From positions 6,529-70,528 of the forward strand of contig JAMQHL010000047.1 in the NCBI GenBank assembly GCA_025993795.1: DNA of 64,000 bases, read 5' to 3'. The notes beneath the pieces are model-generated. The model saw only the letters and a list, made by a program, of their open reading frames with translations. It was not told the DNA's origin and did not search any database. The DNA is from Planctomycetota bacterium (GTDB taxonomy: Bacteria > Planctomycetota > UBA8742 > UBA2392). A program made the position numbers and the translations under genes. This document shows positions 5,060 through 63,907 of this stretch, piece after piece (position 1 is the first letter of the stretch; each line of letters begins with the position of its first letter).

Positions 5060-5063
5060 TTGG

Positions 5064-14051: not shown

Positions 14052-14127
<76 letters not shown>

Positions 14128-30041: not shown

Positions 30042-30128
30042 AGCTGCCTCCAGGAAGATTCTGGGCAGGCTAGTATCCATCCTTAGGTCGTTCATCAAGA
30101 TTTTGTCGCGGCGCCGCTACCCGGCGCG

Positions 30129-42542: not shown

Positions 42543-42606
42543 GCCGCGCTTGCGGCAGAAGCACGATAGAAACGGAACAGCAGTGAGCGGAATCCAGAAA
42601 TTCGTC

Positions 42607-45600
42607 ATGTCCTTCTTCAGCGTGCTGCTGCTGGCAGTGCTGGTGTTGGCTGTGTACGGGGTCATCTTTCCGGGCCGTATCGCCGAAGTACTTGCGCCCG
42701 GCAGTGTATTCTCGTGGGAGAACTTCGATCCGTTCTCGCGGCAGTCTGAAGGCGGCGCCACCTGGAAGGGCATTTCGTTGTTTGAGATCAGCCCGCTGAT
42801 CTGGACGGCGCTGCTCGTGATACCGGTCTGCGTGTTGCTGCCTGCCGTCATCTATTTCTACGAAAAGAAGAAGGTGTCACGGTTGACGCGAGTGTTTCTT
42901 GCGTCGTTGCGCGCGGGCATTTTGTTCCTGCTGTACCTGTTGATTGCCGGCCCGTCGCTGGTCGCCACTGAAACCTATATCGAGGGCAGCAAGGTTGCCG
43001 TGCTGATTGACGACAGCCTTTCGATGGGGGACGAGTCTCGCGAGTTTCCAATCTTCAATGTGTTTGACGACCGCGAGTCAGCGGACGTTCGGGAACTGCG
43101 CGACCATCTGCGCGGCCTTGGCGTTGACGTGCCGCCGCCGCCGAACCAGGGTTTCGTTACCCTGTCCGATGACGAAGTGGCCGTGCGCGGGTTTGCCCGG
43201 CGGGTTGTGCGTGAGCGCGCGACACGGATGGTCAAGCGTTTGTCTGAGCTGCATGGCGGTCGCTTTGACATCGGCGGCTGGCAGCGACTGCGGCGCGAAC
43301 TGGACGGCATCGCCGCAGAGGCAGACTTGCGGCAGAGTGAACTGTCGGCTGAAACCAGCAAGGAAACGCCGAATGATAGCCAGGTACGCCGCCTGCAGAG
43401 CGAGCTGGATGAGCTGTTGCGGCAGTTGATGCTGCGCGAGCAGGAATTTGCGAAGCTGCTGGGTGGCAAAGCGGACGACAAGGCTGTCATCCAGAAGCGC
43501 GCACTGATCAACAACCTTCTTGGCACATGCCACCCCGAAGGCCCGCGCCGCTGGGACATCGCCTGCGAGCTGGTGACGGACGGAAACACGCTCAGCGCCC
43601 TGAAGCAGGGCGACAAATCATTGATTGATGTACTGCGCGCGCGCGCCGCCGAGATAGCGCAGAAGGCCGACAAGCGCCGCACCGAGAACCGCGTTGCCAT
43701 GCTTCGCTTCTTCGTGTTCTCAACGCGTTTCGGTCGCGAACAGCTCACCGACGAGGCCATCCTCGAGATTGATCCGGCAGAGCTCGACTTCCGTGAGCCT
43801 CGAGGGCGCCTGACCGAAGTGGATGCAGCGCTGCGCGAAGTGCGCCGCTACTACACCGCCGAAGATGACCTGTCGTCGATCATTCTTCTGACCGACGGAC
43901 GCGACACCAGCCCGAACGAAGTACGTGCGGCAGACGAGGCCGCGAAAGCACGCAGCAGTGTAGAGATCGTCAGCATCGCCATTGGCAACCCCAAGCCGGT
44001 CAAGGTGCTTGAATTGCTGAGCGTTTCGGCGGACCGCGAAATACTCAAGGGCGACTTCCTTGACTTCAAGCTGAAGATTCGCGCTGACAAGGCCTATCGC
44101 GCAGACACCGAAAAGGGAACGCCCGGCCAGCGCGTGAAGATCATCCTGTGCGAAGATTCGCCGACCAACCCCGTGGCATACAGTGAATTGAACGGCGGAG
44201 TGGTACGGGGCCAGGATGGCACCGAAATCGAGCTTGGGCCGGAAGAGCTGGCAGAAGTGAAAATCCGGTTCAAGCCGGCCGTAACCGGCAAGCACATCTA
44301 TTACCTGAAGCTGAACGATGACCGGCTTCCGGATGAGGACACGTACCGCAATAACGTCAAGGAACATGAGGTCGAGATCATCGACCGCAAGATCAAGGTG
44401 CTTTACCTGGAAGGCCGCTTCCGCTACCAGGCGCGGTACCTGAATGAAGCACTCAAACGCGACAAGAAACTTGAGTACCAGGGCTACTTTTTCGACGCGC
44501 AGGACGGATGGACCCAGCCCACAAGCCAGTACGATGAAGAAGTCCGCCGCAAACTGACGCCGCTGGTTGCCCCGTTTGCCGTGGGCGACCGGGTGATTCG
44601 CGACAAGGAAGAGTTTTTCAAGCTCGACTATGACGTCATCATTATGGGCGATGTTGACCCGGATGACAGCCGCTTCCGGCGCGAGCACTGGGATTGGCTT
44701 GAAGAGTGGGTGAGCCACCACCGCGGCGGATTGGTACTGCTCGCCGGCCAGGGCTACAACTTCAGCGCCTACCGCAACATTGAAAAGGCGCGGGTGCTGT
44801 ATCCGGTTGAACTCGACACGCCCCGTGACGCTGAGGGTGCCATCGACCACAAGCAGCAGAAGTTCTGGCGCCTTACGCCCGCCGGTCGCGCACATGAAGT
44901 GCACCGCCTGAGCAGCAACCCGGCCCGTAATGACGAGCTGTGGGGCAGCATTAAGGATGGCAGCTTTGTCAAAGGACAGCTCCACGGCCTGTACTGGTAC
45001 CAGGGCACTGCGGGCATCAAGCCGGCACCGGCGGTCGCGCTGTCGCGCGTCACACGCGAGGGCAAGATTACGGGCGAAGGCGACGTACTGACCGCCGCCA
45101 TGCCATACGGCAGCGGCATGACCTTCTATTGCGGCAGCGACGACACATGGTTGTGGCGCGAGTTTGTCGGCGACGTGTACTTCTACCGGTTCTGGCAGAA
45201 CACGCTGCGATTTGTTGCCAGCCGCCGCCTGAAGGGAAAGCAGCAGCGGGTGGACGTCTATACCGACAAGACCCGCTACCAGGTGAGCGAGCAGGTCAAG
45301 GTCTATGTGGAGTTGCTGGGCGACATCTACAACGAGGTTACGCAGAACCAGAATAAGGAGCTCTCAGAGCTGCCGCGCGGCCCCGAGGACACGGAGGCGC
45401 GTCGCCTGATTGTCGAGTTGCAGGCCCGCAGCCAGGGGCGCTTGTCGGCGCGTCGTGTTGTCCTGCGTGAAGTGAGCTGGAGCCCGAACCTGTTTGAGGG
45501 AATCGTTGAAGCCAATGAGCCCGGGCAGTTCGACGTATGGGTGCAGGGCTACGAAGAAAGCCGCAAGCAGCCGCACCGCTACACGGTGATCGCTCCGGTA

Positions 45601-45894
45601 GCAGAACTGCGCAACCTGACAATGGACTTTGATGGCTTGCAGAAGCGCTCCACCAAGCTGCCCGCAAGCATTGCGCCCATGGAATACCAGGGCGGCAAGC
45701 GCATCTACCTGATGACGGACATGGGCCAGGCAGTCTTTGAAATCCGCGAGAAAGAGAACGAGCTGAAGGGCATCACCAGCCTGCTGTGGAACCGCAAAGA
45801 TGAGCCCTGGAGTTTGCGCTCGATGCTGCTGGTGTTGATGATCATGCTGCTCGCCGGCGAGTGGCTGACCCGTAAGCTCGTGCGCATGGTGTAA
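42607..45894 (+). CDS. second very large BatA/vWA-type membrane protein (≈1095 aa)
   Basis: TM segments at the N-terminus (MSFFSVLLLAVLVLAVYGVIFPG; LIWTALLVIPVCVLLPAVIYF; GILFLLYLLIAGP). vWA MIDAS VAVLIDDSLSMGD ... IILLTDGRDT is split by a long coiled-coil insertion. C-terminal TM LVLMIMLLAGEWL. Start ambiguous between GTG 42583 and ATG 42607; the ORF-track start at 42238 overlaps the previous gene and is rejected. Confidence 0.6.
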   Translation: MSFFSVLLLAVLVLAVYGVIFPGRIAEVLAPGSVFSWENFDPFSRQSEGGATWKGISLFEISPLIWTALLVIPVCVLLPAVIYFYEKKKVSRLTRVFLASLRAGILFLLYLLIAGPSLVATETYIEGSKVAVLIDDSLSMGDESREFPIFNVFDDRESADVRELRDHLRGLGVDVPPPPNQGFVTLSDDEVAVRGFARRVVRERATRMVKRLSELHGGRFDIGGWQRLRRELDGIAAEADLRQSELSAETSKETPNDSQVRRLQSELDELLRQLMLREQEFAKLLGGKADDKAVIQKRALINNLLGTCHPEGPRRWDIACELVTDGNTLSALKQGDKSLIDVLRARAAEIAQKADKRRTENRVAMLRFFVFSTRFGREQLTDEAILEIDPAELDFREPRGRLTEVDAALREVRRYYTAEDDLSSIILLTDGRDTSPNEVRAADEAAKARSSVEIVSIAIGNPKPVKVLELLSVSADREILKGDFLDFKLKIRADKAYRADTEKGTPGQRVKIILCEDSPTNPVAYSELNGGVVRGQDGTEIELGPEELAEVKIRFKPAVTGKHIYYLKLNDDRLPDEDTYRNNVKEHEVEIIDRKIKVLYLEGRFRYQARYLNEALKRDKKLEYQGYFFDAQDGWTQPTSQYDEEVRRKLTPLVAPFAVGDRVIRDKEEFFKLDYDVIIMGDVDPDDSRFRREHWDWLEEWVSHHRGGLVLLAGQGYNFSAYRNIEKARVLYPVELDTPRDAEGAIDHKQQKFWRLTPAGRAHEVHRLSSNPARNDELWGSIKDGSFVKGQLHGLYWYQGTAGIKPAPAVALSRVTREGKITGEGDVLTAAMPYGSGMTFYCGSDDTWLWREFVGDVYFYRFWQNTLRFVASRRLKGKQQRVDVYTDKTRYQVSEQVKVYVELLGDIYNEVTQNQNKELSELPRGPEDTEARRLIVELQARSQGRLSARRVVLREVSWSPNLFEGIVEANEPGQFDVWVQGYEESRKQPHRYTVIAPVAELRNLTMDFDGLQKRSTKLPASIAPMEYQGGKRIYLMTDMGQAVFEIREKENELKGITSLLWNRKDEPWSLRSMLLVLMIMLLAGEWLTRKLVRMV

Positions 45895-51992: not shown

Positions 51993-54041
51993 TCACTTCG
52001 AGCCGTGGTAGTCTGGCTTGTCGGTTTCTTTCACGGCTTCGCCCTTCTTGGGGGGCGGCGGCGTGATGCCCAGCTTGACCAGGTTGCGCTTGATCAGCCT
52101 GCTTTCGGCAATTGAGTACATGCTCGACACGATAAAGTAGAACGCGAACCCGCTGGCGTACCCGTAAAACATCAGGCCCATGATCGGAAAAATACAGCCC
52201 ATCTGCTTCTGCATTGCCGCCTGCTGCGGGTCGCTCGGCTTGGGCTGCATCTTGAATTGCAGGATGCTCAGCGCGATCCAGAGCATCGGCAGAATGTTGA
52301 TCGTAAGCCAACCGTTGTGGGCAAGAAAGCTGATCCAGCCCTCGCCAATGAATGTGCTGGCGGGGATTGTTGCATCGGGCAGGCTCAGATCATGGATACC
52401 CAGAAACTCGGCCTGGCGCAGAAAGAACGCCGCCCCGAACGCGCGGTACAACCCGATGAAAATGGGCAACTGAATCAGCATCGGAAGGCAGCCGCCGATG
52501 GGCAGCATTCCGACGTTCTGCTCTTTCATCGCTGCACGTGTTTCGGTCAGCATGCGCATCTGGCTGTCGCGGTCTGTCTTTTCTTTGTACTTCTCTTTGA
52601 TCGCGTCCATTTTTGGCTTCACGATCTTCATCTTCTGCGTGTAGACGGCCATTGCCTTCTGGCCGCGATAGCTCAGCGGGCTCAGCGCGCAGCGCACAAT
52701 CAGCGTCAGAAGAATGATCGCAAAGCCGGCGCCCACCAGGTTCGTCAGCAGGCGCAGAAACCAGATCAACGGGCTCGCAATCAGGTCAAAGAAACCGCTC
52801 GTGGCAAGCTCGGCCCACTGGGCGCCCAGATCTGCATCTTTGGGCGGCGCCAGAAGCCACGCCGCTGTCAATGCGTCGCGGTCGCGAGGGCCAACATAGA
52901 GGCGCATGCTGGTCGTTTGCTCCCCCGGCTTGCCGGCCTCAGCCGGCGGCACAGCCAACGGCGGACCGGTCAAGGAGATCGCGGCTGTTGTGCCGATGGG
53001 CAGAATCGCGCCGCTCCAGCGCTGGTCCCGCAGGTCCGGGTCCTGGGCGATGAAGGCCAGGAAATACTGAGTGCGCAGGCCGTGCGCGATCAGAAAGCGG
53101 TCGGGGTCTTCCACTTCGTCGAGGTCGCGGCTGGTGATCCACGCGTTGGTCTTTCCAAGTTCTTCGTTGCGTTCTCTGACGGCTTCTGCGAGTGCCGGGA
53201 CTGTGGGAGAGTCCTTGAGCTTGGTGAAGCGCTTGCTGTCGGTGCTTCCGTACAGCGCCACGCGGCTCCATTCGCCGGCAGTGCGCATACCGTCGTTGGT
53301 AATGCCTACAGGCCCCCAGATGCCGACGAACTTCTCGCGTACCTTGTCGCTGCGGTTCTCGACACGAACCTGCACGTCAAGCCGATAGGAGCCGGGATAG
53401 AGCGTGATTTTCTTGTACAGCACAGTGCCGTCTGACTCGGCATCGTGCTCAAAGCCCTTGGACGGCGGAAAACGGAAGGTCAGCGATTGAACGCCCTCGT
53501 CGCCGGTTTCATTCAGCGCCAGCTCCCAGCGCGAGGTGTTGCGAGCGCTATCGTTCGGGTCGATCAGAAGCGCGAACGGGGCAATATCAGGTGCCGCTTC
53601 TTCGGGCCGCAGAAGCTGGAGAGGCTCATTTGGCTCGACCGTCGGGTTGTCCGGCGTACGCCAGAAGACTACGTTGCCGTCAGCATCGATGAACGCCACC
53701 GAGTCCAGCACGGCGCCGCGGTCAGACACGGTGGCAGTCAGGCGGCTGTTGGCCAGCTTCCAGTGTTTTGCTTCGGCGCGCGGAATGGGCGCGAAGCCGT
53801 GTGCCCTGTCAGCCTCGGTGGCTTTCGAAGTACTGGCCGATGCGGGCCCGGTGCTTCTGATTTCAGGCGTCGGCTGATTGGCCGGCGGTGCGCTGGACTG
53901 GTTTGCAGGCGGTGAGTTGGACTGGTTTGCGGGCGGCACAGGCGGTGCGGACGGCGGAATGATCCATGCCTGGCACGCATAAAAGCCTGCCACGATCAGG
54001 ATGATCACGACGACCATCTGGATCATTTCTTTGCGTTGCAT
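51993..54041 (-). CDS. yidC: membrane protein insertase YidC with long periplasmic domain and Pro/Asn/Gln-rich N-terminal repeat
   Basis: N-terminal TM, then PPSAPPVPPANQSNSPPANQSSAPPANQPTPE, a large periplasmic β-rich domain, and the C-terminal 5-TM Oxa1/YidC core (…QKMKIVKPKMDAIKEKYKE…LPMLIQLPIFIGLY…GLMFYGYASGFAFYFIVSS). Confidence 0.8.
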   Translation of the reverse strand: MQRKEMIQMVVVIILIVAGFYACQAWIIPPSAPPVPPANQSNSPPANQSSAPPANQPTPEIRSTGPASASTSKATEADRAHGFAPIPRAEAKHWKLANSRLTATVSDRGAVLDSVAFIDADGNVVFWRTPDNPTVEPNEPLQLLRPEEAAPDIAPFALLIDPNDSARNTSRWELALNETGDEGVQSLTFRFPPSKGFEHDAESDGTVLYKKITLYPGSYRLDVQVRVENRSDKVREKFVGIWGPVGITNDGMRTAGEWSRVALYGSTDSKRFTKLKDSPTVPALAEAVRERNEELGKTNAWITSRDLDEVEDPDRFLIAHGLRTQYFLAFIAQDPDLRDQRWSGAILPIGTTAAISLTGPPLAVPPAEAGKPGEQTTSMRLYVGPRDRDALTAAWLLAPPKDADLGAQWAELATSGFFDLIASPLIWFLRLLTNLVGAGFAIILLTLIVRCALSPLSYRGQKAMAVYTQKMKIVKPKMDAIKEKYKEKTDRDSQMRMLTETRAAMKEQNVGMLPIGGCLPMLIQLPIFIGLYRAFGAAFFLRQAEFLGIHDLSLPDATIPASTFIGEGWISFLAHNGWLTINILPMLWIALSILQFKMQPKPSDPQQAAMQKQMGCIFPIMGLMFYGYASGFAFYFIVSSMYSIAESRLIKRNLVKLGITPPPPKKGEAVKETDKPDYHGSK

Positions 54042-54281
54042 GCGGTGCCTGCCTGAAAGCCGCCTGAAACCAGCCAGCGAAGGGCAACCCGTATAGACCA
54101 GCGCTTAAACCCCGTCAATGCAACGGCGCCCGGCAAATCGAAGGCTTTGTAGCGCGGATAGTTGTGACTTTGTCGTCCCCTGGCCGGTCTGGGTGTCATT
54201 CCGAATTGCGCCGCGGCTATTGCCGTTGTACGGGCCCCGGGTTTGCGCCATAACGCTGGTTTTCCTGGCAAGCAGGCCCTC

Positions 54282-55196
54282 ATGAAAACGCTTGACCTTT
54301 CGGTGCCGACAGACCCGCCGCTTGGGGCCACGCTGATGGTCCCGGACCGCCCTGTTGCCGCGGCGCTGGTGCACCAGGGCGGCGGAGTCCATGACCGTGA
54401 CGGAAACATGTCCGCCGTGGGGTTCAAGAGCAGCCTGTATCGGCGACTTGCGACTCTGCTTGGCGCCAGAAGCATCGCTACCCTGCGATTCGACAAGCGC
54501 GGCAGCGACAAGCCGGCGCGTTACCCGCACTCATACACTCTTCCTGACCGCGTAGACGACGCCAGGACGGCACTCCAGGCGCTTCGCGAGCATGAGTTGA
54601 CGGCGCGACTTCCGGTTTTCCTGATCGGCCACAGTGAAGGCGGCATGGTTGTCACCAAGCTTGCTGAAACTGAGGCCGTTGTCGGGGTTGTCGCCCTGTG
54701 TGCGCCCTTCGGGAACGTCTTTGAACTTGGGCGCTTTCGGGCCCAGCGGCTGATCAAAGAGGCTGCCGGTGCCCAGCGGGCCAAGGGCGAGAAGGTGCTG
54801 GAATACTACAGCCGCCTGGAAAGGTATTTTAACGAGGGCACGAAGCTGCCACCTGAGCAGTTCGTAGAGTTTGCCACGCCCTATCTGGGCGCTGGCTATA
54901 ACGGCTGGGAAAGTTTCGAGTGGCTGGCGGGCCTTTGGGCGGACTACCTGAAAGCTGACCCGTCAAAGCACGGCCGGCCAATGCTGGTGGTGCAGGGCGG
55001 GCGCGATGCGAGGCTGCACCCGAACAACGCGCGACATTGGCGTGAGTGGTGCGAGACCCGGCCGTTGGCCGAGTTTCACCTGATCGATCACCTGGGCCAC
55101 GACTTGAATGACGCACGCCAGAAGTTGTTTCGAGTGGACAACGAAATGATCGACCTGGTCGGCGGCTGGATCGAGCGGGCGTCCGCTATGCAATGA
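54282..55196 (+). CDS. alpha/beta-fold hydrolase
   Basis: Nucleophile elbow FLIGHSEGG, an acid in DYLKADPS..MLVVQGGRDARL, and a histidine near the C-terminus (HLIDHLGHD). Start at ATG 54282 (MKTLDL). Confidence 0.6.
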   Translation: MKTLDLSVPTDPPLGATLMVPDRPVAAALVHQGGGVHDRDGNMSAVGFKSSLYRRLATLLGARSIATLRFDKRGSDKPARYPHSYTLPDRVDDARTALQALREHELTARLPVFLIGHSEGGMVVTKLAETEAVVGVVALCAPFGNVFELGRFRAQRLIKEAAGAQRAKGEKVLEYYSRLERYFNEGTKLPPEQFVEFATPYLGAGYNGWESFEWLAGLWADYLKADPSKHGRPMLVVQGGRDARLHPNNARHWREWCETRPLAEFHLIDHLGHDLNDARQKLFRVDNEMIDLVGGWIERASAMQ

Positions 55197-55197
55197 A

Positions 55198-55222
55198 ACG
55201 CGCCGCAAGGTGGCGGCGCGTT
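55198..55222. terminator. hairpin between convergent hydrolase and kinase genes (aacgcgccgc-aaggtg-gcggcgcgtt)
   Basis: 10-bp perfect stem starting 2 nt after the hydrolase TGA, followed by tgaag. Confidence 0.4.
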
Positions 55223-55243
55223 TGAAGCCCGATCGCGAATGCA

Positions 55244-56313
55244 TCAGGTCGTTGCGTGCTGTTTGAACTCGGGAAACAGGTGCTGCAGGTAGTCGGCCAT
55301 GGTGTTGAACGTCGGCCCGTACCCGCCCTTGTAGATGTAGAACTCAAGGTCCGTGGCGGCCTCGCCGGCGTCCTGGTAGCGCTTGCCTTTGTCGCGCTCG
55401 AGCATGCGGTCGAGCACGCGCTGCAGGTCGTCATCGACGTTGGGGTTGTAGTGGCTGATGGGTGGAATCGGCTTCTTCTGCACGTTTTCAATGCAGATCA
55501 GTGTGTCGTCGTCGGCAAAGATGTTCCGACCGGCAAGCATTTCGTACAGCACAACGCCCAGTGAAAACACGTCGCTGCGCCCGTCTGTCTGCTCAAAGGC
55601 GGCCTGTTCCGGGCTCATGTACTGCACCTTGCCCATCAGCACGTCGCCTTCTTTATCCTTCATGATGTGGCGGGCCTTGGCGATGCCGAAGTCGGTCAGC
55701 TTCACCACACCCTCAGCTTCAATCATGATGTTCTTGGGGCTGATGTCACGATGCACAACGCCCAGCAACTCGCCCTGGCGGTTGCGCTTCTTGTGCGCGT
55801 ACTCAAGGGCACGGGCCACGCGGCTGGCGACATACACGCACAGCTCTGTGGGAATGCGCTTCTTGTACTGGTGGTGGCGGTCAATGAACTGTTCCAGGTT
55901 CACGCCGTGGATGAACTCCATGGCCATGTAGTACTGGCGGCCGACCTTGCCGAGCTGGTAGATCTGTACGATATGCTGGTGGATCAAGTCTGCTACCAGC
56001 TTGGCTTCGCCGATGAACATCTCGACGAACTCTTCGTTGGTAGAGAAGTCCTCAAGCACGGTCTTGATGGCCATGCGTTTCTCAAAGCCATCTGAGCCAA
56101 TCTGGATGGCCTCATAGACCGCACCCATGCCACCCTCGGCAAGCTTGCGGACAAGCTTGAAGGTGTTGGTGTCCTGGATCGTGGACAGCGATTCGATGTT
56201 ACGTTCTTGTTTCTTGAAGAGGCCCAAAGCCCGCTCCTTGGATATTGCCCTGCATGCCGAAGCCTGCGACTGAACAAGTGTTACAGTGGGCGGTACTATC
56301 GCAGACTGACCCC
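55244..56313 (-). CDS. Ser/Thr protein kinase (Hanks-type)
   Basis: Gly-loop KLAEGGMGAVYEA, AIK (VAIK-like: MAIKTV), HRDISPKN (catalytic loop), DFG (LTDFGIA), and SPEQ (APE-like). Start uncertain (TTG 56313 or TTG 56227). The ORF-track extension to 56935 overlaps lepB on the other strand and is rejected. Confidence 0.7.
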
Positions 56314-56338
56314 CGGGCTTCAAGACCCGCGTCCGATC

Positions 56339-56950
56339 ATGGCCCAGAACGCACAACTTGAACCGGCCCTTGCCCTTGAGCGAAATCGCAAGCGCGTCAA
56401 AGCCGCGCGGCGATGGATCAGGCGGCTTCGATTCGGGCTTGCCGCACTGCTGCTGCTTGTCGGCATTTACGCCCTGATGAGCTATAGCGTGTACACGCTT
56501 CCGGGTGAGTTCGACCCCAACAGCATCAAAGTGCAGTCCCCGATTGAGGACATCCAGCGGGGCGACACGGTGCTGCTGCTGAAACTGAACCTGTGGCGAG
56601 ACCCCAAGGTGGGGGACATTGTCCTTTACGACCACCCCAACCCGCGCGATGGCGTGCCCGAGGTGATGCTGGGTCGCATTGCCGGCTTGCCCGGCGAAGA
56701 GTTGCGGCGCGCGGGGCCCACGATGGCGATCGGCGGCCGGCCCCCGCAGTCTGTGGGGTTCGACATCGGCTCGCAGGCCACATTTCAGGACGGGCAGGTG
56801 ATACCCGCAGGCGAGTACCTGATCCTGATGGACACCGATGCGGTGAATTACGGCGACAGCCGCGATTTCGGCTTTATCGCCCGCGACGCGATCCGGCAAA
56901 AGGTCGCGCTGAACATGGCAGGGGTGCTGGGGCAAAGGGCGATGAAGTAG
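56339..56950 (+). CDS. lepB: signal peptidase I
   Basis: N-terminal TM (LRFGLAALLLLVGIYALMSYSVYT) and the SPase I region GDTVLLLKLNLW...GDIVLY. ATG at 56339 (MAQNAQ); the track start TTG 56207 is rejected. Catalytic Ser/Lys assignment is from pattern only. Confidence 0.6.
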   Translation: MAQNAQLEPALALERNRKRVKAARRWIRRLRFGLAALLLLVGIYALMSYSVYTLPGEFDPNSIKVQSPIEDIQRGDTVLLLKLNLWRDPKVGDIVLYDHPNPRDGVPEVMLGRIAGLPGEELRRAGPTMAIGGRPPQSVGFDIGSQATFQDGQVIPAGEYLILMDTDAVNYGDSRDFGFIARDAIRQKVALNMAGVLGQRAMK

Positions 56951-57029: not shown

Positions 57030-57755
57030 ATGCCTTTCACAAAATATGGTCTGCGTGAACTGTTTCTGTTCGGCTTTGCCATTCCTGGCGCGCTTTGGGT
57101 TGGCGTTTGGGCGTTGGCATGGTTCGTCCATCCGGCCCTGTGGGCTGTGGGGGTAATCCCGCTGTTCTTGACCGGGTTCAATCTCAACTTCTTTCGCGAC
57201 CCCGACCGGCCTTTGCCCGGCGACGAATTTACCGTCGTCAGCCCCGCCGACGGAACCGTGACCGACGTCGGCGAGAAACAGTTGGACGAGTACCTGAAAG
57301 GCAAGCACCAGGGCATCGGGATATTCCTTAGCGTGTTTGACGTGCACGTGAACCGCGCGCCCCTGGATGGCACGCTTGAGTACTCACGCCATCAGGATGG
57401 CGAATACCGCGATGCCCGCGACCCCGAGTGCAGCATCTTGAATGAGGCGCAGAATCTCGGCTTCAAGAGCAAGTGGGGGCCGCGCTACTATGTGCGGCAG
57501 ATCACCGGCTTGATAGCGCGGCGCATCGTGCTGGGAATCAAGGAAGGCGAGCAGGTGAAGCGCGGCGAGCGCTTCGGCATGCTGAAGTTTGGCAGCCGCA
57601 CGGAGCTGTACTTCGACAACGATTTTGAAGTTGAATGGAAAGTGAAGGTCGGAGACAAAGTCAAAGGCGGCGGCACAGTCATCGCCATCATAAAAGTACT
57701 AGCTGGCGTTTCAGCCAAGCCAGACGGCGAAACAGCCTTGGCCACCAAAACCTGA
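57030..57755 (+). CDS. psd: phosphatidylserine decarboxylase family proenzyme (short, archaeal/bacterial-type)
   Basis: Two N-terminal TMs, and C-terminal ...RGERFGMLKFGSRTELYF carrying the G-S (pyruvoyl-forming FGS) motif in the expected position. Size (241 aa) fits the short PSD family. Confidence 0.65.
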   Translation: MPFTKYGLRELFLFGFAIPGALWVGVWALAWFVHPALWAVGVIPLFLTGFNLNFFRDPDRPLPGDEFTVVSPADGTVTDVGEKQLDEYLKGKHQGIGIFLSVFDVHVNRAPLDGTLEYSRHQDGEYRDARDPECSILNEAQNLGFKSKWGPRYYVRQITGLIARRIVLGIKEGEQVKRGERFGMLKFGSRTELYFDNDFEVEWKVKVGDKVKGGGTVIAIIKVLAGVSAKPDGETALATKT

Positions 57756-57766
57756 GGGGAGATCCT

Positions 57767-58933
57767 ATGCGCACTGTCAGCCTGATGATTGCAGGTCTGC
57801 TTCTGTTCCAAGCCGGGTTCGTGGCACAAGAATCGCCTCCGTCGAAGCGAATGGTGCAGGTCGATTTTGAGGCGGCACAATTGGACGAAGTGTTTGCGCG
57901 CATGGCAAAGCAACTGGGGTACAAGGTGCTGCTCAGCAAATCGGTTGATCCGGACACGGAAGTGACGATGGTGCTCGGGGCAGTATCTCCTGAAGTTGCA
58001 TTCGCCTTGCTCGCACACGAACTGGATCTCGCAATCGAACTGCACAGCGATCGCAAATTGATTGAGGTAGATGAGGAAGGTGGCGGCTACACATTTTACG
58101 GGCCCTATACCTACGATATCACCAAGCTGAGTGCCTCGTTTTACGCAGCCAATGCCGTGCTGGGGCCGCCTCCGAAGCGTGACGCCGAACTGCCTCCGGC
58201 AAGAGAGTCCGATTGCATATCCGACCTGCGCACCGCAATGCATTGGGCTCTGGGCCTTGAGCCCCGGCACACTGCGGGAGTCGGTGACGCTGCGGCAACC
58301 TGTTGGACGAAATCGCGCGAGCGAGTGGAATTGGAAGAGCTGATCGGGTTGCTGTCTTCCGATGGCGGTGGTCAGAGCACATGGCTGAAACTGCAGTCCG
58401 AGACCTGGAAGAAGATGAAGGAATCCCAGATGGTACTGGCGGTACAGGCACAGACGCTGTCGGAAGTTGTCGCAGTGCTGTCAGAGAAATTGGCCGCTCC
58501 CTTTCTTATCAGCCGAGAACTTCTGTACAGCGAGACGGACACTTGCAGCCTGGACCTGCCGGAGCTGACTTTCTTAGACACTCTGAGAGTAGTGTGCCGT
58601 CAGTACCATGCTCGCCCCTTCTTGATAGGCAACGTCGTCTATCTGGTCCGCGATGATGACCATCTCTCCTCGTACCCTCAGATCGGCTACGCTGTGTACA
58701 ACGTGGCCCAGTTGATTGAAGACCTGAAGACCAAGTCCGCTGTGAAGTCGGACACGCTCGGCCGGGACCTTAGGCAACAAGTCATGGATCTACTGGAAAC
58801 GGCCATTCTCAACGGAGATGATAGCGATATAGGCCCTGTCGATTTTGGAACGAGAATCCTGGTCAGGGGTGACATGCAGGTACAGGAAATCGTGCAGAAA
58901 CAGTTGATCGCGCTGGGTTGGAAACCGAGCTAG
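57767..58933 (+). CDS. secreted protein, paralog A of a tandem triplicated family (secretin-N/STN-like N-terminal module; C-terminal ...IALGWKPS)
   Basis: Signal peptide MRTVSLMIAGLLLFQAGFVAQ. N-terminal VQVDFEAAQLDEVFARMAKQLGYKVLLSKSVDPDTEVTMVLGAVSPEVAFALLAHELDLAIELHSDRKLIEV fits the STN/secretin-N pattern (v..dl..a.L.evl..la...g..v........v.l.l..v....al..ll...gL.......v). Shares blocks with paralogs B and C (YDITKL; ELIGLLSSDGGG; ...LIALGWK). Real start ATG 57767; the track start 57635 overlaps psd. Confidence 0.55.
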   Translation: MRTVSLMIAGLLLFQAGFVAQESPPSKRMVQVDFEAAQLDEVFARMAKQLGYKVLLSKSVDPDTEVTMVLGAVSPEVAFALLAHELDLAIELHSDRKLIEVDEEGGGYTFYGPYTYDITKLSASFYAANAVLGPPPKRDAELPPARESDCISDLRTAMHWALGLEPRHTAGVGDAAATCWTKSRERVELEELIGLLSSDGGGQSTWLKLQSETWKKMKESQMVLAVQAQTLSEVVAVLSEKLAAPFLISRELLYSETDTCSLDLPELTFLDTLRVVCRQYHARPFLIGNVVYLVRDDDHLSSYPQIGYAVYNVAQLIEDLKTKSAVKSDTLGRDLRQQVMDLLETAILNGDDSDIGPVDFGTRILVRGDMQVQEIVQKQLIALGWKPS

Positions 58934-58953
58934 CGCGCCAGACGGGGATCCTT

Positions 58954-60165
58954 ATGACACGGACTCTGAGCATCTTCATGTGCCTGCTAGCAGTTGTAAC
59001 GCTGGCGCGGGCGCAGGAACAACCGGTTGAGCTGACGGTCACCTGTGTGTATCCAGGCGCTGAATTGGGCGCGGCGCTGACGGACTTTGCGGGCCAGCTT
59101 GGTTACCAGGTAGATCTGGGCGAGCTTGAGGACAGCGATGAGCTCGAAGAGCCGATCTGGGTGCTCGCGCGCAACGTCAAGCCCGACGTGGCTCTGAAGC
59201 TGATCTCCGAATCCGGCCGAGTTGCGCTGCAACTGGATGCCGAAGCGCGCATGCTGCGCTGCAAGCTGGACGGCTCGGTAGTCGGCAAGCCCGAGGTTCG
59301 AGGTTTTGACGTCAAGGCGCTGACCACTGCGTTTCGCGACTACCGCAAGCGCTTTGACAAACCGCTGCCCGCCGAGGCAGGCCAGGCCCCGTCCGAGATT
59401 CTGCTTGAGGTTGTGCAGCGGGTGCTTGAGGGCGATGCCAGCACCGACACAGGATCGCCTGTCGGTACACGCCTGGTGTTTACGCGCACGGCCGACGAGC
59501 TGCGCAACATTGAAGAGTTGCTGTCGCTGCTGGCCGCTGAAAAGGGCGGCGACAGCTCAGCGTTGAGCAAAGACCGCGCGAACCGGCTGGCGCTTGAAAA
59601 GAACGCGCCGCGAGGGCTGCCTGCCGGCGCCAGTTTTGGGGCGGCCTTGTGGCGCCTGTTCGAGAAGTTCCCGGCGCCGGTGTATGTGCATCGATCGTTG
59701 CTCGAGACCGTGTTTCTGGATGACGATGCCGACGTCGCTGATATGGAAGCCGGCCCGAACGAAGTGCTTGCGCTGCTGGCAACCGAGCACAGCTTTTATG
59801 TGGACGCGCGCCATGGGGCGATGCGGCTTCACCAGCTGCATTACGCCGGCACGCCTAGTTACCGGGTGTTTGCGCTCGATGCGCTGCTGGCGGACCTGGA
59901 GAAGCAGTACAAGGATATGGCCGAAGGCGCCGACAATCCTGACGAGCTTTCACTAAAGGCTCGCGGTGGTGTCGCCGTGATCGTGGACGCCCTTGAGGCC
60001 CAGCTCGAAAGCGCCGGGCATCTTCCCCAGGTGCTGGCCTATGGTGCACGCATTGTGGTCATGGGCGGCAGCGACATCGTTGACACCGCAGCAAAGATCC
60101 TGCGTGAACTCGGCTGGAAAGACCCCGCCAAGGACGCGGGTAAGGAAGAAAGGAGCGGCAAGTGA
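58954..60165 (+). CDS. secreted protein, paralog B of the same family (C-terminal ...ILRELGWKDP)
   Basis: Signal peptide MTRTLSIFMCLLAVVTLARAQE, then N-terminal LTVTCVYPGAELGAALTDFAGQLGYQVDLG...VALKLISESGRVALQLD. Shared blocks FDVKAL, ELLSLLAAEKGGD and the LGWK tail. Confidence 0.55.
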   Translation: MTRTLSIFMCLLAVVTLARAQEQPVELTVTCVYPGAELGAALTDFAGQLGYQVDLGELEDSDELEEPIWVLARNVKPDVALKLISESGRVALQLDAEARMLRCKLDGSVVGKPEVRGFDVKALTTAFRDYRKRFDKPLPAEAGQAPSEILLEVVQRVLEGDASTDTGSPVGTRLVFTRTADELRNIEELLSLLAAEKGGDSSALSKDRANRLALEKNAPRGLPAGASFGAALWRLFEKFPAPVYVHRSLLETVFLDDDADVADMEAGPNEVLALLATEHSFYVDARHGAMRLHQLHYAGTPSYRVFALDALLADLEKQYKDMAEGADNPDELSLKARGGVAVIVDALEAQLESAGHLPQVLAYGARIVVMGGSDIVDTAAKILRELGWKDPAKDAGKEERSGK

Positions 60166-61361
60166 AAACCGCCGCCATCGTATTGCTTGCGCTGTCGCTG
60201 GCATGGTCATCGGCGAACTCGCAGGACAAGCCTGAGCCGGCCACGCTCAGCCTTTCGTACCTTGGTGTGCCTGCCGAGGTTGCGCTGACGGAGTTCGCGA
60301 GGTCCGCACGCCTGAAACTGGACCTGGGTGATGTACCGCCGGAAATGGAAACACCGGTGTGGCTGAGTGTCCAGAAGGTTGAGCTGGCGCACGCAGCAAA
60401 ACTGCTTTCCGTGGCGACCGGCCTCAGCGTGGTTGCCGACGGGAAGCGGCTGGTAGTTCGCGAGGTTCCTGAGGCAGGCAATCACCAGTTCACTCGCGGT
60501 TATGACGTGAGTGTGCTGGCGGGACGCTTTGTCGACTATGTGCGCGCCTATGGCCACCCTGACGCGGAGCGGGCAAAGGCCTCTCCGGGCAGCAAAGAAG
60601 AGCCCTATCTGGCAACCGGTGCCGAAAGCCTGGCGCACCTGATCTGTCTGGTGCTGGATGTGTTGTGGGACGCCCAACCTGCGTGCTCTGTGGTGGGGGA
60701 GCGGATACTGCTTACGACAGACCACTGGACGCACACCCGGGTGCGCGAACTTCTTGCGTTGCTGGTGTCAGACGCCGGCGGTGAGCACCCGTACACGACT
60801 TCCGGACGCGCGCAACTGGCCAAGCTTGCAACAGGCGAGGTGAAGTACGAAGCCGAGGACAGGCCGCTCGGCAGCGTGGTTGCAGGGCTGTGCAAACTGG
60901 CATCTGTCGACTTTGTGGTGCATCACGCGATTGCCACGATGTTCGCCGACGAGCACGCCACGTTGCGGGGCACCGATACCTGTGCGGGGCTGCTCGAGGC
61001 GGTCGTACGCCACGGCGGGTACGAGTTCACGACTTCCACTGCGCTGGGCGTGATCTGCTTCCGGCACGTAGACACGCCTGAGCACGGCGGTTGCAGTGTA
61101 CTCGAAACGGCGACCCTGCTGAAGCGGATTGATGCCTCGTACCAGCGGCAGAAGACAACGCCAGGAGGCCCCGAAAGCCTGCGCGCAGCGGGCGGAGTGC
61201 AGGTCGTAGTTGAAGCGACAGAGACCGCTCTCGACGCGCAGGATTGTCCGGCCATCGTATCGGCATTCGGCACGCGCGTGATCGTCATCGGCGTGCCGTC
61301 TGCATGTGACGCGGCTGCGGGTATACTGAAAGAGATGGGCTGGGAAGCGCCAAAGGAATGA
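60162..61361 (+). CDS. secreted protein, paralog C of the same family (C-terminal ...ILKEMGWEAP)
   Basis: GTG start overlapping the paralog B stop (GTGA). Signal peptide MKTAAIVLLALSLAWSSANSQ, N-terminal LSLSYLGVPAEVALTEFARSARLKLDLG...AAKLLSVATGLSVVADGKRLVV, and shared blocks YDVSVL, ELLALLVSDAGGE, LGW tail. Confidence 0.55.
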   Translation: MKTAAIVLLALSLAWSSANSQDKPEPATLSLSYLGVPAEVALTEFARSARLKLDLGDVPPEMETPVWLSVQKVELAHAAKLLSVATGLSVVADGKRLVVREVPEAGNHQFTRGYDVSVLAGRFVDYVRAYGHPDAERAKASPGSKEEPYLATGAESLAHLICLVLDVLWDAQPACSVVGERILLTTDHWTHTRVRELLALLVSDAGGEHPYTTSGRAQLAKLATGEVKYEAEDRPLGSVVAGLCKLASVDFVVHHAIATMFADEHATLRGTDTCAGLLEAVVRHGGYEFTTSTALGVICFRHVDTPEHGGCSVLETATLLKRIDASYQRQKTTPGGPESLRAAGGVQVVVEATETALDAQDCPAIVSAFGTRVIVIGVPSACDAAAGILKEMGWEAPKE

Positions 61362-62425
61362 TGCCTGACAGCAACGCACCATCCAACAGCGAACGTTTGC
61401 CGTCAACCACGGCCAGCGGTCGCATCATTCAGCTTGACACGTCAAGTGAGTCCGGCGCCCATGGCTCTGTCAACACGTCTCGCCGCCGCAAACGCCAGCG
61501 CATGCCCGGGCTGGCAATGCTGCCGACGGCACTGACGTTGGGCAACGCAATCTGCGGCATCGCTGCACTGATTGAACTGGCAAAGGCATTTGCGGCTATC
61601 GGCGTCGGGCACGGCAGCGAAGTAACGCTTCGGCTTGGGTATGCTGCGCTGCTGATCGGCGCGGGCATGCTGTTTGATGCCATGGACGGCAAGGTCGCGC
61701 GCATGACGGCGACCACGGGGCGCTTCGGCGCTGAACTCGACAGCCTGTGCGACGCCGTAACGTTCGGCGTCGCCCCGGCGATCATGATACGCGTGGGCGG
61801 CGAGTTTTTTTTCGCGCGCGCGCCTTTTGCATTCGACTTTGACACCAAGCTGCTGTGGGCCGTGTGCGGCCTGTACGCCTGCTGCGCCATTCTGCGCCTT
61901 GCGCGGTTCAATGTCGAAACCAGCGAGGTCGACGACCACAGCGTGTTTCACGGCCTTCCCAGCCCCGCCGCTGCCGCCAGCGTGTGCGCGCTGATGCTGG
62001 GTTGCACCTGGTTGTACGACCATTACCCATCGTTCAGCGAACAGCCCTGGCCGTGGGTGTTGCGGTTTGTCATCCCGATCACGTGCGCCTTCATCGGGTT
62101 GATGATGGTGACGCGCATCCGCTACGTTCATCTGTTCAATCGGCTTGTGTCGCGGCACCAGAGCCTGAAGTCGATGGTGTTCATACTGCTGATTGCGGTG
62201 GCGGTGGTGATTTTCATTGATTACTGGAAGCTGCTGGTGCCGGGACTGATGTTCGGTTATGTCCTTTCCGGTCCCATCTACTTTGCCTATCGATTTCTGC
62301 GAAACCGAGGGCTGCTGGGGCGGCGCCTCGCGATTGCCGAACGCAAACGCAGGCGTATCGAAGAGAAGGCCCTCCAACAAGCAGCGAACGATGCCCGCAA
62401 AGATCCTGCAGCCAAGCCAACTTGA
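61358..62425 (+). CDS. pssA: CDP-diacylglycerol--serine O-phosphatidyltransferase (CDP-alcohol phosphatidyltransferase family)
   Basis: The sequence MLFDAMDGKVARMTATTGRFGAELDSLCDAVTFGVAP is the D(x)2DG(x)2AR...G(x)3D(x)3D CDP-OH-P transferase motif, and it is preceded by the PssA-like TALTLGNAICG. ATG at 61358 overlaps the paralog C stop (ATGA); the true start may be the internal M at ~61502 (MPGLAMLP). Confidence 0.75.
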   Translation: MMPDSNAPSNSERLPSTTASGRIIQLDTSSESGAHGSVNTSRRRKRQRMPGLAMLPTALTLGNAICGIAALIELAKAFAAIGVGHGSEVTLRLGYAALLIGAGMLFDAMDGKVARMTATTGRFGAELDSLCDAVTFGVAPAIMIRVGGEFFFARAPFAFDFDTKLLWAVCGLYACCAILRLARFNVETSEVDDHSVFHGLPSPAAAASVCALMLGCTWLYDHYPSFSEQPWPWVLRFVIPITCAFIGLMMVTRIRYVHLFNRLVSRHQSLKSMVFILLIAVAVVIFIDYWKLLVPGLMFGYVLSGPIYFAYRFLRNRGLLGRRLAIAERKRRRIEEKALQQAANDARKDPAAKPT

Positions 62426-63446
62426 CGATGCCGCACGAATGCTGCGGGACGGTGCGCTTGTGGGTTTTCCCACAGACACCGTGTACGGCGTGGCGGCACG
62501 CGCAGACGCCGACTTCAGCAATGCAGCATTGAAGGCGTTCAAGGGCGGCCGCAGCGAGGGCTTCTCGCTTCATGCAGGCAGCGCTGACTTTGCAGTCCAG
62601 GTCGCGGGGCCTCTGCTGCCGCCCGAGGAATTTGCGGTCCGCACACTTACGCCCAACGGCGCCACGGTTGTGGTCGCCAAGGGCAGCTCATCGTTGGGGC
62701 TGCGTGTAGTGCGGCATGCGGTCGGCTCGGCGCTGCTTGAAGCGGCCGGCTTGCCTGTCATTGCTACCAGCGCCAACGAGCACGGGCAGCCGCCGCTGCG
62801 CGACCCGCATGCTATCGCCAGGCTGGGCGTTGATGCCGTGGTGGACGGCGGCGTACTGCCCGAGCGGTCGCCAAGCAGCGTCGTGCGGCTACTGCCCGTC
62901 GGGATCGAAATTCTGCGGCGCGGCGCACTTGAGAAAGACCGGCTTGCGCAGATGTACACGCAGTCGGTGCATTTTGTGTGCCTTGGCAACCTGAACCGAA
63001 GTGCGTTTGCACACCGCCTGCTTGAGGCAATGCAGAGTTGGCTGATGGGGCAGGTGCGTGACTATGTGCCGGCCTATGCGCCGACCAGCAGCGGGCTGAT
63101 TGCGCGATCGGTAAAGCGTTCACCGCCGGACATGCAGCAAGCCGCGCGGCGCTACCACGTCGCAATGGCGTCGCACGTTCCGCAGGCGTTTGATGCAGAG
63201 GTCCTGCCGGCACTGTGCGTCTCGATGGGAGATGACGTGGCGGTCGAAGTCAATGCAGCCGCGCCCGGCAAGGTGCTTCACTGGCAGATCGACGACCCGA
63301 TGGGTAAGCCACCAGGCGTGTACGAGCGCACGGCCAGGCAGGTGGTCGCGCAGATGCGTACAGACCTGCTTGCACGCTGGGCTGGTAACGGAGCGTTGGA
63401 AACCGAGTTCTTGAATCTATTCTGCGGACACGGAGATTCGCCATGA
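62391..63446 (+). CDS. tsaC: fusion protein: L-threonylcarbamoyladenylate synthase (TsaC/YrdC domain) + low-molecular-weight protein phosphatase (LMW-PTP/arsenate-reductase fold) domain
   Basis: N-terminal DAARMLRDGALVGFPTDTVYGVAARAD...VATSANEHGQPP is the YrdC/Sua5 core. The C-terminal VHFVCLGNLNRSAFAHRL is the CX5R(S) P-loop (V/I-x-F-V-C-x-G-N-x-x-R-S) of LMW-PTPs, with a later DDPMG (DP general-acid region). Start at ATG 62391 overlaps the pssA 3' end by 35 nt. Confidence 0.7.
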   Translation: MPAKILQPSQLDDAARMLRDGALVGFPTDTVYGVAARADADFSNAALKAFKGGRSEGFSLHAGSADFAVQVAGPLLPPEEFAVRTLTPNGATVVVAKGSSSLGLRVVRHAVGSALLEAAGLPVIATSANEHGQPPLRDPHAIARLGVDAVVDGGVLPERSPSSVVRLLPVGIEILRRGALEKDRLAQMYTQSVHFVCLGNLNRSAFAHRLLEAMQSWLMGQVRDYVPAYAPTSSGLIARSVKRSPPDMQQAARRYHVAMASHVPQAFDAEVLPALCVSMGDDVAVEVNAAAPGKVLHWQIDDPMGKPPGVYERTARQVVAQMRTDLLARWAGNGALETEFLNLFCGHGDSP

Positions 63447-63907
63447 TCATCGCCATTGCCTCAGATCACGCGGGATTCAAGTTGAAGCAGGCGATCATGG
63501 ATCATCTGCGGAAGGCCGGCCATCAGGTCCTGGACGAAGGCCCAACGGACGAGCAGCGCGTGGACTATCCCGATTTCGCCCAGCGCGCGGCGCGGGTCGT
63601 GGCCCGTGGCGATGCCCAGCGTGGCGTGCTGGTGTGCGGCAGCGGCATCGGCATGTGCATGAGCGCAAACAAGATTGCGGGCATTCGTGCGGTTGTGCTT
63701 CACGACGCATGGGAAGCTGAAATGTCGCGGCGGCACAACGACGCCAACGTGGCGTGCTTTGGCCAACGCAGCATGGGCGAAGATGTGGCGACACACGCGC
63801 TGGATGCATTCCTGCGCACGGAGTTTGATGGCGGCCGCCACGAAGGACGGGTTGCCAAGATCGGGCATCTTGATGGCAGCGTGAAAATTGTGGCGCCCGG
63901 TGAGTAG
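63443..63907 (+). CDS. rpiB: ribose-5-phosphate isomerase B (RpiB/LacA/LacB family)
   Basis: MIIAIASDHAGFKLKQAIMDHLRKAGHQVLDEG...GVLVCGSGIGMCMSANK matches RpiB (catalytic Cys in CGSGIG). Overlaps the previous stop by 4 nt. Confidence 0.85.
   Translation: MIIAIASDHAGFKLKQAIMDHLRKAGHQVLDEGPTDEQRVDYPDFAQRAARVVARGDAQRGVLVCGSGIGMCMSANKIAGIRAVVLHDAWEAEMSRRHNDANVACFGQRSMGEDVATHALDAFLRTEFDGGRHEGRVAKIGHLDGSVKIVAPGE

Follow-up and report, generated by a model that had tools for sequence, protein, structure and literature searches.

N0 and N1 domains serve in docking between proteins and in the building of rings. In secretins (GspD/XcpQ, PilQ, EscC/InvG/MxiD) they occur together in the periplasm, at the neck of the pore, and the N0 fold has relatives in the STN domains of TonB-dependent transducers (FecA, PupA, FpvA, HasR), in the STN-like C-terminal domain of the FecR/PupR anti-sigma factors, and in stand-alone N0 proteins (DotD, the globular domain of Xanthomonas VirB7, BfpG), lipoproteins that have one N0 domain each and whose genes belong to secretion or pilus clusters. 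We know of no lipid-binding example of an N0 or N1 domain. How phospholipids are delivered to and organised in the outer layers of the diderm envelope is still being worked out, and to our knowledge almost nothing has been learned about it in Planctomycetota. The Bacillus pssA-petA-psd operon carries as its middle gene PetA/YbfM, a DedA-family PE flippase that acts on PE and affects its transbilayer distribution (PMC10193950). Here we describe a planctomycetal locus in which three periplasmic proteins built from N0-N1-like modules are encoded in the equivalent genomic slot, between the genes for PS synthase and PS decarboxylase.

Layout of the psd-X-pssA locus

The window analysed is a stretch of 64,000 nucleotides from an uncultured member of the Planctomycetota. 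On its plus strand, psd, three paralogous genes (X1, X2 and X3) and pssA lie head to tail, and a check of the sequence confirmed this order and every coordinate noted for it in the initial annotation. The first gene, psd (57030–57755), encodes a short-type phosphatidylserine decarboxylase that has two membrane helices at its N terminus and a visible FGS self-cleavage motif; it matches PF02666 (143 bits, 1.2e-41), and its top NCBIfam match is NF003678 (2.3e-62; 210 bits against an equivalog cut-off of 225). The last, pssA (61358–62425), encodes a CDP-alcohol phosphatidyltransferase, probably a phosphatidylserine synthase, in which the D-G..A-R motif is visible; it matches PF01066 (55 bits, 1.3e-14), with TIGR00473 (pssA) as its top NCBIfam match (7.3e-27; 94 bits against an equivalog cut-off of 107). 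Because both fall below the NCBI equivalog cut-offs, the two enzyme names are family-level assignments and should be read as probable.

The intervening genes, all on the plus strand, are X1 (57767–58933, 388 aa), X2 (58954–60165, 403 aa) and X3 (60162–61361, 399 aa, with a GTG start). Direct reading of the junctions bears out the tight coupling proposed for the run. The psd TGA is followed by 11 nt containing GGGGAG and then the X1 ATG, and the X1 TAG by 20 nt containing GGGGAT and then the X2 ATG. The next two junctions are 4-nt overlaps, in which GTGA is common to the X2 stop and the X3 start, and ATGA to the X3 stop and the ATG start of pssA. A scan for promoters and terminators gave the same result as shuffled sequence, with no plus-strand promoter matches, and is uninformative on transcript structure.

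Downstream of pssA, the co-directional run continues with a housekeeping fusion of Sua5/YrdC and low-molecular-weight phosphatase domains (62385–63446, plus strand; PF01300 1.5e-23, PF01451 2.2e-5), whose start is inferred from 353-aa orthologs within an ORF that itself opens at 62259. It ends with rpiB, for ribose-5-phosphate isomerase B (63443–63907, plus strand; PF02502 1.9e-55), whose first 4 nt overlap the end of the Sua5 gene; neither of these genes is lipid-related. For context, an S26 signal peptidase I gene (56207–56950; PF10502 1.5e-11) precedes psd by 79 nt and is likewise on the plus strand; it is missing upstream of psd in the related loci L018 and L019, so that this neighbourhood is not universal among relatives. 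A window-wide search found no other N0-module genes and no secretion genes elsewhere in the window.

Family identity and domain architecture of the X proteins

BLASTP supports the paralogy of the three proteins, which is clear for X2 and X3 (8e-29, 27% identity over full length) and more distant for X1 (4e-7 to X2 and 1e-7 to X3), the most divergent copy. All three carry the NCBI label 'hypothetical protein' and lack a meaningful match in Pfam, NCBIfam, PADLOC or PHROGs, in agreement with the initial annotation, which recognised no named family. The motifs it quoted are present in X1–X3 and conserved across the family alignment: YD[VI]..L with a near-invariant D119, ELL.LL....GG with conserved E188, L193 and G199, and L.[EA][LM]GW[KE] with conserved L383 and G387. 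X3 retains the ancestral conserved loop YQRQRTxPG..GFxGDLRxxGG, while X2 and X1 have the look of partner subunits that have diverged.

The reported signal peptides also hold across the family: signal-peptide-like N termini occur in 38 of 40 members, the remaining two being truncated gene calls, and in both X1 and X2 the peptide covers approximately residues 1–21. No membrane segment beyond the signal peptide was found in family members. A lipobox-like pattern is confined to two of the 40, where it falls within the hydrophobic core of the signal peptide, and a lipoprotein reading was rejected for lack of a lipobox. The X proteins are soluble and acidic, are exported to the periplasm by Sec and form a family without an earlier name; what is new is the family itself, its domains being already known in kind.

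In the AlphaFold model (40-sequence alignment, pLDDT 92; an earlier six-sequence run was poor at residues 239–299) and in profile comparisons, each X protein is predicted to consist of a signal peptide followed by a tandem duplicate of a ~190-residue didomain. The first part of the didomain adopts an N0/STN fold and the second a beta-alpha-alpha-beta-beta-alpha topology resembling the KH-like N1 domain of secretins. In X2, D1 (N0/STN fold, 59035–59271) and D2 (N1-like, with the same topology, 59290–59553) are followed by a linker helix, D3 (N0 fold, 59623–59844) and D4 (N1-like, with LGW at its end, 59854–60120). Domain HMMs recover the same plan in X1 (D1 57848–58081, D2 58106–58375, D3 58442–58660 and D4 58685–58927; matches of 2.5e-22, 1.4e-17, 2.7e-14 and 4.1e-16) and in X3 (D1 60237–60467, D2 60483–60785, D3 60849–61076 and D4 61086–61346).

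The initial annotation had read the N termini as STN/secretin-N modules. Fold comparison and remote profiles uphold this, and the sequence level does not: Pfam STN and Secretin_N have zero matches in X1–X3 even at E<=1. Within the family, Secretin_N (PF03958) gives sub-threshold matches in five of 40 members (best E 0.007) and picks up D2 of the family consensus, in the expected register, at E 0.3, while STN (PF07660) matches two of 40 (best E 0.026) without reaching its gathering score. The full-length family profile returned only non-significant EscC/PilQ matches and spurious ferritin matches from PDB sequences. At the level of fold, the N-terminal N0 domain of secretins (GspD/PilQ/InvG) and the periplasmic signalling domain of FecA/PupA are both present in X, the latter joined by transitive sequence homology to STN.

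Several features set the X proteins apart from these relatives. As the initial annotation stated, they have no secretin C-domain: PF00263 has no match at E<=1 in X1–X3 or in the 40 family members, and in the alignment and model the chain ends a few residues past domain 4. Compared with secretins, they thus lack the beta-barrel pore domain; their didomain is duplicated inside one chain, their N1-like domains carry an extra helix, their sequence similarity lies under Pfam thresholds, and their genes sit in a context of lipid synthesis rather than of secretion or pili. Unlike TonB-dependent transducers, they have neither plug nor barrel (Pfam scans of X1–X3 and 40 family members); unlike FecR/PupR, they contain neither an anti-sigma nor a transmembrane part and have no ECF sigma gene beside them. 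From DotD, VirB7 and BfpG they differ in having four domains and no lipobox, and in being encoded between psd and pssA.

The closest structural matches bear on a signalling role, in which the N0/STN domains would bind a periplasmic partner, signal the state of the envelope or its lipids and adjust the activity or expression of PssA/Psd in a FecA-FecR-like manner. The best matches by rmsd are the FecA/PupA signalling domains and the anti-sigma C-terminal domains of PupR and BDI_1681, and distant sequence relatives of X have STN and FecR_C matches. However, the X proteins offer no membrane segment to carry a signal across the inner membrane and no TonB-dependent barrel, and no sigma or ECF sigma/anti-sigma gene is conserved nearby in the 27 related loci (L019 alone has a divergent sigma-70-family gene), which makes such a role highly doubtful.

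The LGW segment had been singled out as a conserved C-terminal tail. The motif is indeed conserved, but it forms no separate module and is merely the end of the last helix; a remote search did not place it, the domain-4 profile giving only spurious summed matches in the PDB to Ika8 and Ika4, which are designed repeat propellers. Archaeosortase/PE anchoring and Atg8 suggested by analogy a further reading, in which LGW would direct C-terminal sorting or lipid attachment. This was rejected because no hydrophobic segment follows LGW, because the 2–16 residues after it are variable and polar, and because in the alignment LGW corresponds to the point where the ELLxLL helix of domain 2 ends.

The X repeat unit is shared with a set of unnamed long multi-repeat proteins (for example P0060, P0100 and P0057), in which an N0-like module recurs 2–8 times, every ~200 residues (X-family profile E 1e-13 to 1e-5), with some repeats called STN by Pfam. 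At 450–1700 aa these proteins are much longer than X and are not full-length homologs, and their N1-like half is seldom recognisable with X models.

Distribution and origin of the family

A word-indexed protein search returned only five or six relatives and missed X3 itself, and an exhaustive profile search was used instead. The latter defines about 45 full-length clusters, 380–430 aa in length throughout, whose known members all come from one clade of uncultured Planctomycetota. A genome scan with an X3-type alignment as query, followed by a survey of gene neighbourhoods, found psd-X-pssA with one to three X copies in 27 of 27 related loci and X in no other setting. In the nearest outgroups psd directly adjoins pssA, and the X clade is monophyletic (psd identity >=60% inside, <=54% outside), showing that the family arose when a single gene entered a psd-pssA bicistron already present in the clade ancestor. 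One X is the ancestral number, two are usual and three, with X1, occur sometimes. Single-copy forms cluster with the X3 clade in the NJ tree, and X3 is the paralog nearest these ancestral-type forms. X1 is an accessory, low-GC copy (0.559 against 0.58–0.64 in neighbouring genes) that is missing from the closest relatives, L005 and L006.

Against the closest relative, X2 and X3 have dN/dS values of 0.066 and 0.114, and psd and pssA of 0.097 and 0.081; X2 and X3 are thus under strong purifying selection. Their values resemble those of the two enzyme genes, and the X genes are functional and not chance ORFs. High-GC DNA is rich in long spurious ORFs, and the only part of secretins that the X folds resemble is the N-terminal one, as would be expected of decaying secretin remnants. 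Yet the dN/dS of 0.07–0.11, the length kept in every cluster, the confident structural model, the conserved signal peptides and the conserved RBS and overlap coupling leave either origin a negligible chance, and we regard both as refuted by the selection and conservation data.

The single origin also bears on what the gene order can tell. The position goes back to a single insertion in the ancestor, so the 27 loci do not count as separate observations, and because the X clade is monophyletic, psd-X-pssA synteny counts as one event. Inertia can be enough to keep a gene in an essential operon, and it is a real possibility, though one to which we give only about a third of our belief, that X is a periplasmic adaptor or scaffold for envelope machinery whose genes lie elsewhere (a secretin, a pilus, a TonB-dependent system or some other complex of the outer membrane), with no functional tie to PE synthesis and kept in place since excision from an essential, translationally coupled operon would be costly. 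The known N0-fold relatives all act in secretion, pilus or TonB-dependent systems, the operon is of mixed function (Sua5, rpiB), and in L001 and L018 rpiB is closely followed by a PilM-type cluster. However, that cluster is missing downstream in L019 and L020, and no secretion genes are conserved near X loci. The position between psd and pssA has also survived duplication to two or three copies and changes in both flanks; new, X1-type copies enter this same junction and not elsewhere, and no relocated copy occurs among about 45 clusters.

A possible role alongside PE synthesis

We tentatively favour, with somewhat less than even confidence, a periplasmic scaffold, a hetero-oligomer of X paralogs, that is made together with the PE synthesis enzymes and acts alongside them. 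Overlapping reading frames would yield the paralogs in fixed proportion, and these would assemble in the periplasm; we infer a hetero-oligomer because N0/N1 domains are docking modules, because synthesis would be in fixed proportion, and because two X units are naturally fused in one polypeptide (P0052, a single cluster). Most speculatively, the reason for co-production of the assembly with the PS synthase and decarboxylase would be that it takes part in PE synthesis from the periplasmic side. Its docking site might be the membrane enzymes or fresh PE-rich membrane, and it might organise PE or hand it on for the outer envelope, for which PetA/YbfM is a precedent. In its specific form, in which an X ring or bridge docks on the PS-synthase/decarboxylase pair and passes new PE, or PE-rich membrane, on to the outer membrane or a different layer of the envelope, we consider the proposal unlikely.

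Gene position is the sole link between X and lipids. The envelope or lipid-associated function proposed initially is therefore partly supported: the conserved psd-X-pssA arrangement suggests an unexplored cell-envelope role and is not proof of one. The parallel with PetA/YbfM is likewise one of position. The two share no homology, PetA being a polytopic membrane protein and X soluble and periplasmic; a DedA (SNARE_assoc) domain has no Pfam match in X1–X3, and gene order is reversed, with psd first in X loci.

One Planctomycetota clade nevertheless has, in PetA's slot, a strongly conserved periplasmic family whose genes are tightly coupled to those of the enzymes and have been duplicated more than once. 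If position reflects function, X is a concrete candidate envelope-lipid factor and the first case of N0-N1 'secretin neck' modules acting without a pore; if the ring or bridge were real, secretin-type N0-N1 modules would be used for trafficking or organising lipids, in an envelope lipid supply route specific to this clade. Even without a lipid role, an unannotated family is now defined by domain plan, motifs and distribution and linked with a broader group of N0 proteins that contain multiple repeats. A search for docking surfaces, in which PssA and Psd of the X clade were compared with those of outgroups, provided a weak lead in the form of small, poorly conserved insertions in the predicted periplasmic loops of X-clade PssA.

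Three paralogous genes between psd and pssA

A single co-directional run on the plus strand of the ORF list extends from an S26 signal peptidase gene (56207–56950) through psd (57030–57755), the three genes X1 (57767–58933, 388 aa), X2 (58954–60165, 403 aa) and X3 (60162–61361, 399 aa), and pssA (61358–62425), to a Sua5/YrdC–LMW-phosphatase fusion (most likely 62385–63446) and rpiB (63443–63907). Psd matches Pfam PS_Dcarbxylase (1.2e-41), and PssA matches CDP-OH_P_transf (1.3e-14), with TIGR00473 pssA as its best NCBIfam model (7e-27). Because both score slightly under the NCBI equivalog cut-offs, the names PS decarboxylase and PS synthase are probable rather than certified. The Sua5–LMW-phosphatase ORF spans 62259–63446; its likely start at 62385 lies within pssA, giving a 41-nt overlap (35 nt in the relative L002), and the order Sua5, LMW phosphatase, rpiB is one that we take to resemble the Bacillus ywlC-ywlE-ywlF cluster.

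The initial annotation had described closely coupled paralogs within this run, and the ORF list, junctions and pairwise alignments confirm it as a whole. All four junctions read from the sequence were as claimed: psd ends in TGA, followed by 11 nt with GGGGAG and the ATG of X1; X1 ends in TAG, followed by 20 nt with GGGGAT and the ATG of X2; X2 and X3 overlap in GTGA, and X3 and pssA in ATGA. A promoter and terminator consensus scan performed the same as on shuffled sequence. A full-length alignment of X2 with X3 gives 27% identity (E 8e-29), and the paralogy extends to the more distant X1 (E 4e-7 to X2, 1e-7 to X3).

No Pfam, NCBIfam, PADLOC or PHROG model matches X1–X3, even at lenient thresholds, and all named database copies of this family, here called X, are labelled 'hypothetical protein'. 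When 1.84 billion cluster representatives were searched exhaustively with a profile, only about 45 full-length relatives (380–430 aa) were recovered, with 42 matches at E<=1e-30. Measured against L006, the nearest relative, dN/dS comes to 0.066 (X2) and 0.114 (X3), in the same range as psd (0.097), pssA (0.081) and rpiB (0.044); these are therefore functional, constrained proteins rather than GC-rich noise, and a pseudogene or artefact is excluded.

Duplicated N0–N1 architecture

AlphaFold2, run on X2 with an alignment of 40 family members, returned a confident model (pLDDT 91.8, pTM 0.88). After a signal-peptide helix, D1 (residues 28–105) and D3 (228–294) adopt the N0/STN fold, while D2 (114–200) and D4 (303–385) are secretin N1-like domains of beta-alpha-alpha-beta-beta-alpha topology; a linker helix (202–217) joins the halves. 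The top Foldseek matches are the N0–N1 regions of PilQ, EscC, InvG, MxiD and XcpQ; the secretin-N/STN-like character proposed earlier was largely right. Fold-comparison figures were 8.7 for PilQ, 8.6 for EscC, 8.1 for BfpG and 8.0 for both GspD N0 and Xanthomonas VirB7, and phage and T6SS hub proteins of the same fold were also matched. No Foldseek hit matches X2 as a whole protein (query-normalised TM-score <=0.2).

In profile–profile comparison, the N-terminal half matches the C-terminal half with 97% probability (E 3.7e-11, 163 columns), D1 matches D3 (E 4e-7) and D2 matches D4 (E 3e-7), and the cross-domain controls are not significant. The X protein is thus an internal duplication. One motif singled out initially, ELxxLLxxxxGG, is the last helix of D2; the other, LGW[KE], is the equivalent helix end in D4 and not a separate tail motif.

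At sequence level, the link to secretin N-domains stays below threshold. Across the 40 members, Secretin_N is the commonest match (5/40, best E 0.007), followed by STN, FecR_C, GspD_N0 and Gp44-like, and the family consensus matches Secretin_N at E 0.3 on D2, sub-threshold and in the expected register. There is nonetheless homology of a transitive kind: the X profile matches long N0-repeat proteins (E 1e-13 to 1e-5) carrying the module every ~200 residues in 2–8 copies. In one of these, P0057, the matched stretch (465–562) contains a significant Pfam STN match (503–542). The profile search places P0057, P0060, P0077, P0100 and about 90 others in this N0-repeat set of 450–1700 aa, in which Pfam calls only some repeats STN or FecR_C.

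A classic signal peptide is present in 38 of the 40 members, the other two being truncated gene calls; the 40 show no consistent lipobox and no membrane segment after the signal peptide, and the mature proteins are acidic (pI 4.4–6.1). Together, these results establish X as a soluble periplasmic protein of two N0–N1 didomains, encoded in a tightly coupled gene run shared with both PE-synthesis enzymes and held under purifying selection. The fold of X is similar to those of the STN signalling domain and of the secretin neck in the periplasm, probably through common ancestry, but X lacks the pore domain of secretins. A FecA/FecR-style signalling role, to which the STN likeness could be referred, is improbable because nothing in X spans the membrane and a conserved sigma gene is lacking; compared with TonB-dependent/FecR systems, barrel and anti-sigma part are also missing. 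Unlike N0 lipoproteins X has no lipobox, and unlike DedA/PetA it is not a membrane protein. X is best described as a new, clade-restricted family that combines known modules in a new architecture, two N0–N1 units without a pore, in a genomic setting that is also new.

Distribution of X and the accessory copy X1

We collected 27 related loci, some not independent species, from a genome scan (n=11, all from 'Planctomycetota bacterium' MAGs), a metagenome scan (n=5) and look-ups of individual family members, and annotated them with profiles built from the window's own proteins. The psd–X–pssA arrangement held throughout this survey: in all 27 loci the X genes lie in tandem and, as far as the contig reaches, psd is immediately 5′ and pssA immediately 3′ of them; these loci show X genes in this setting only. 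Most loci carry two copies; L018, L019, L020/21 and L028 carry one, and the window and L011 three. The core trio persists despite a change of both flanks, with MurD/AHSA1 upstream in L018, and in L019 a divergent sigma-70-family gene upstream, flagellar genes downstream and Sua5 absent.

Upstream of psd, a block of YidC(−), alpha-beta hydrolase(+), Ser-Thr kinase(−) and S26 signal peptidase(+) genes (51993–56950) is syntenic across much of the clade (L001, L009, L013–L015, L020), is separated from psd by about 3 kb with a PQQ-repeat gene in L002–L006 and L008, and is absent in L018 and L019. Just downstream of rpiB, a PilM_2/FtsA-type gene (675–688 aa) and two or three unannotated genes occur in L001 (15236–20318) and L018 (11685–17143) and are absent in L019 and L020; the window ends before the equivalent point.

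Psd identity is at least 60% within X-carrying genomes and drops sharply to 54% or less beyond them. In the two nearest outgroup loci, L022 and L023, psd and pssA are adjacent or overlapping without X, and a Planctomycetaceae MAG has psd alone. The X-less outgroup pairs and the identity step show that X was inserted once into a pre-existing psd–pssA pair. A neighbour-joining tree resolves X1-, X2- and X3-type clades; the single-copy forms P0024, P0027, P0037, P0040 and P0046 group with the X3 clade, while P0056 branches apart. As most single-copy forms fall there, X3 is the type nearest to the ancestral one.

X1 is an accessory copy. It is missing from L005 and L006, the loci most closely related to the window, in which psd is followed after 6 nt by an X2 with 93% identity; L011 likewise carries an X1-type gene (4549–5721) that L012 and L027 lack, and these two match L011 at 94–98% identity in psd, X2 and pssA. 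In both carriers the GC content of X1 lies about 6–12 points under that of neighbouring genes (0.559 versus 0.58–0.64 in the window; 0.553 versus 0.64–0.68 in L011), and identity between the X1 proteins of the two carriers is just 29%. In each of two distinct sub-lineages, very closely related loci differ in whether they carry an X1-type gene, and where present it always lies directly behind the RBS, between psd and X2; either repeated gain or repeated loss could account for this.

A putative hetero-oligomer and its possible link to PE

N0 domains dock partners, such as GspC and PilP on secretins and FecR on FecA, and secretin N-domains stack into rings. The X2/X3 and X3/pssA reading frames overlap. 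Conservation of the D4 loop YQRQRTxPG..GFxGDLRxxGG is asymmetric among the 40 aligned members: single-copy and X3-type proteins retain it, X2-type proteins retain part of it, and X1-type proteins have lost it. The representative search also returned P0052 (749 aa), in which two complete X units are naturally fused; only the first unit begins with a signal peptide, and it also shows X1-type motifs. P0052 offers a Rosetta-stone hint that tandem paralogs may act together. From these four lines, we infer that the paralogs would act together as a periplasmic hetero-oligomer, which may support PE supply or organisation from the periplasmic side. This composite explanation is the one we tentatively favour, at slightly less than an even chance.

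Its lipid component, taken separately, is rather unlikely. Gene position is its basis, together with a Bacillus precedent in which ybfM/petA, between pssA and psd, was a synteny-based prediction and proved to control how PE is distributed across the bilayer (PMC10193950). Against it, a single insertion accounts for the synteny, Sua5 and rpiB belong to the operon as well, and the analysis turned up no partner of X; nor, to our knowledge, are N0/N1 domains lipid binders. The main alternative, that X is a scaffold for another envelope machine hitch-hiking in the operon, is a real possibility, though well short of an even chance.

PssA from genomes with X carries short additional segments (around residues 153–160 and 215–233) and a long basic C-terminal tail that the outgroup L022/L023 proteins lack. 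The segments, poorly conserved, fall within two loops assigned to the periplasm by a hand-made topology; segments and tail could form a docking surface.

Elsewhere, and distant from the X genes, a tRNA-Lys (CTT; 14052–14127, plus strand) is the only Rfam or ARAGORN match in the 64-kb window. Two very large ORFs have no Pfam match, one of 1313 aa (26157–30098, minus strand) and one of 1218 aa (42238–45894, plus strand) that directly follows a BatA/VWA-type gene (40092–42542). Judged from its genes, a minus-strand cluster at 5064–11586, comprising an ABC-2 permease, a DUF4340+PPIase protein and an ABC_transp_aux/DUF7088 protein, is a putative, uncharacterised ABC-type export or gliding-like module.
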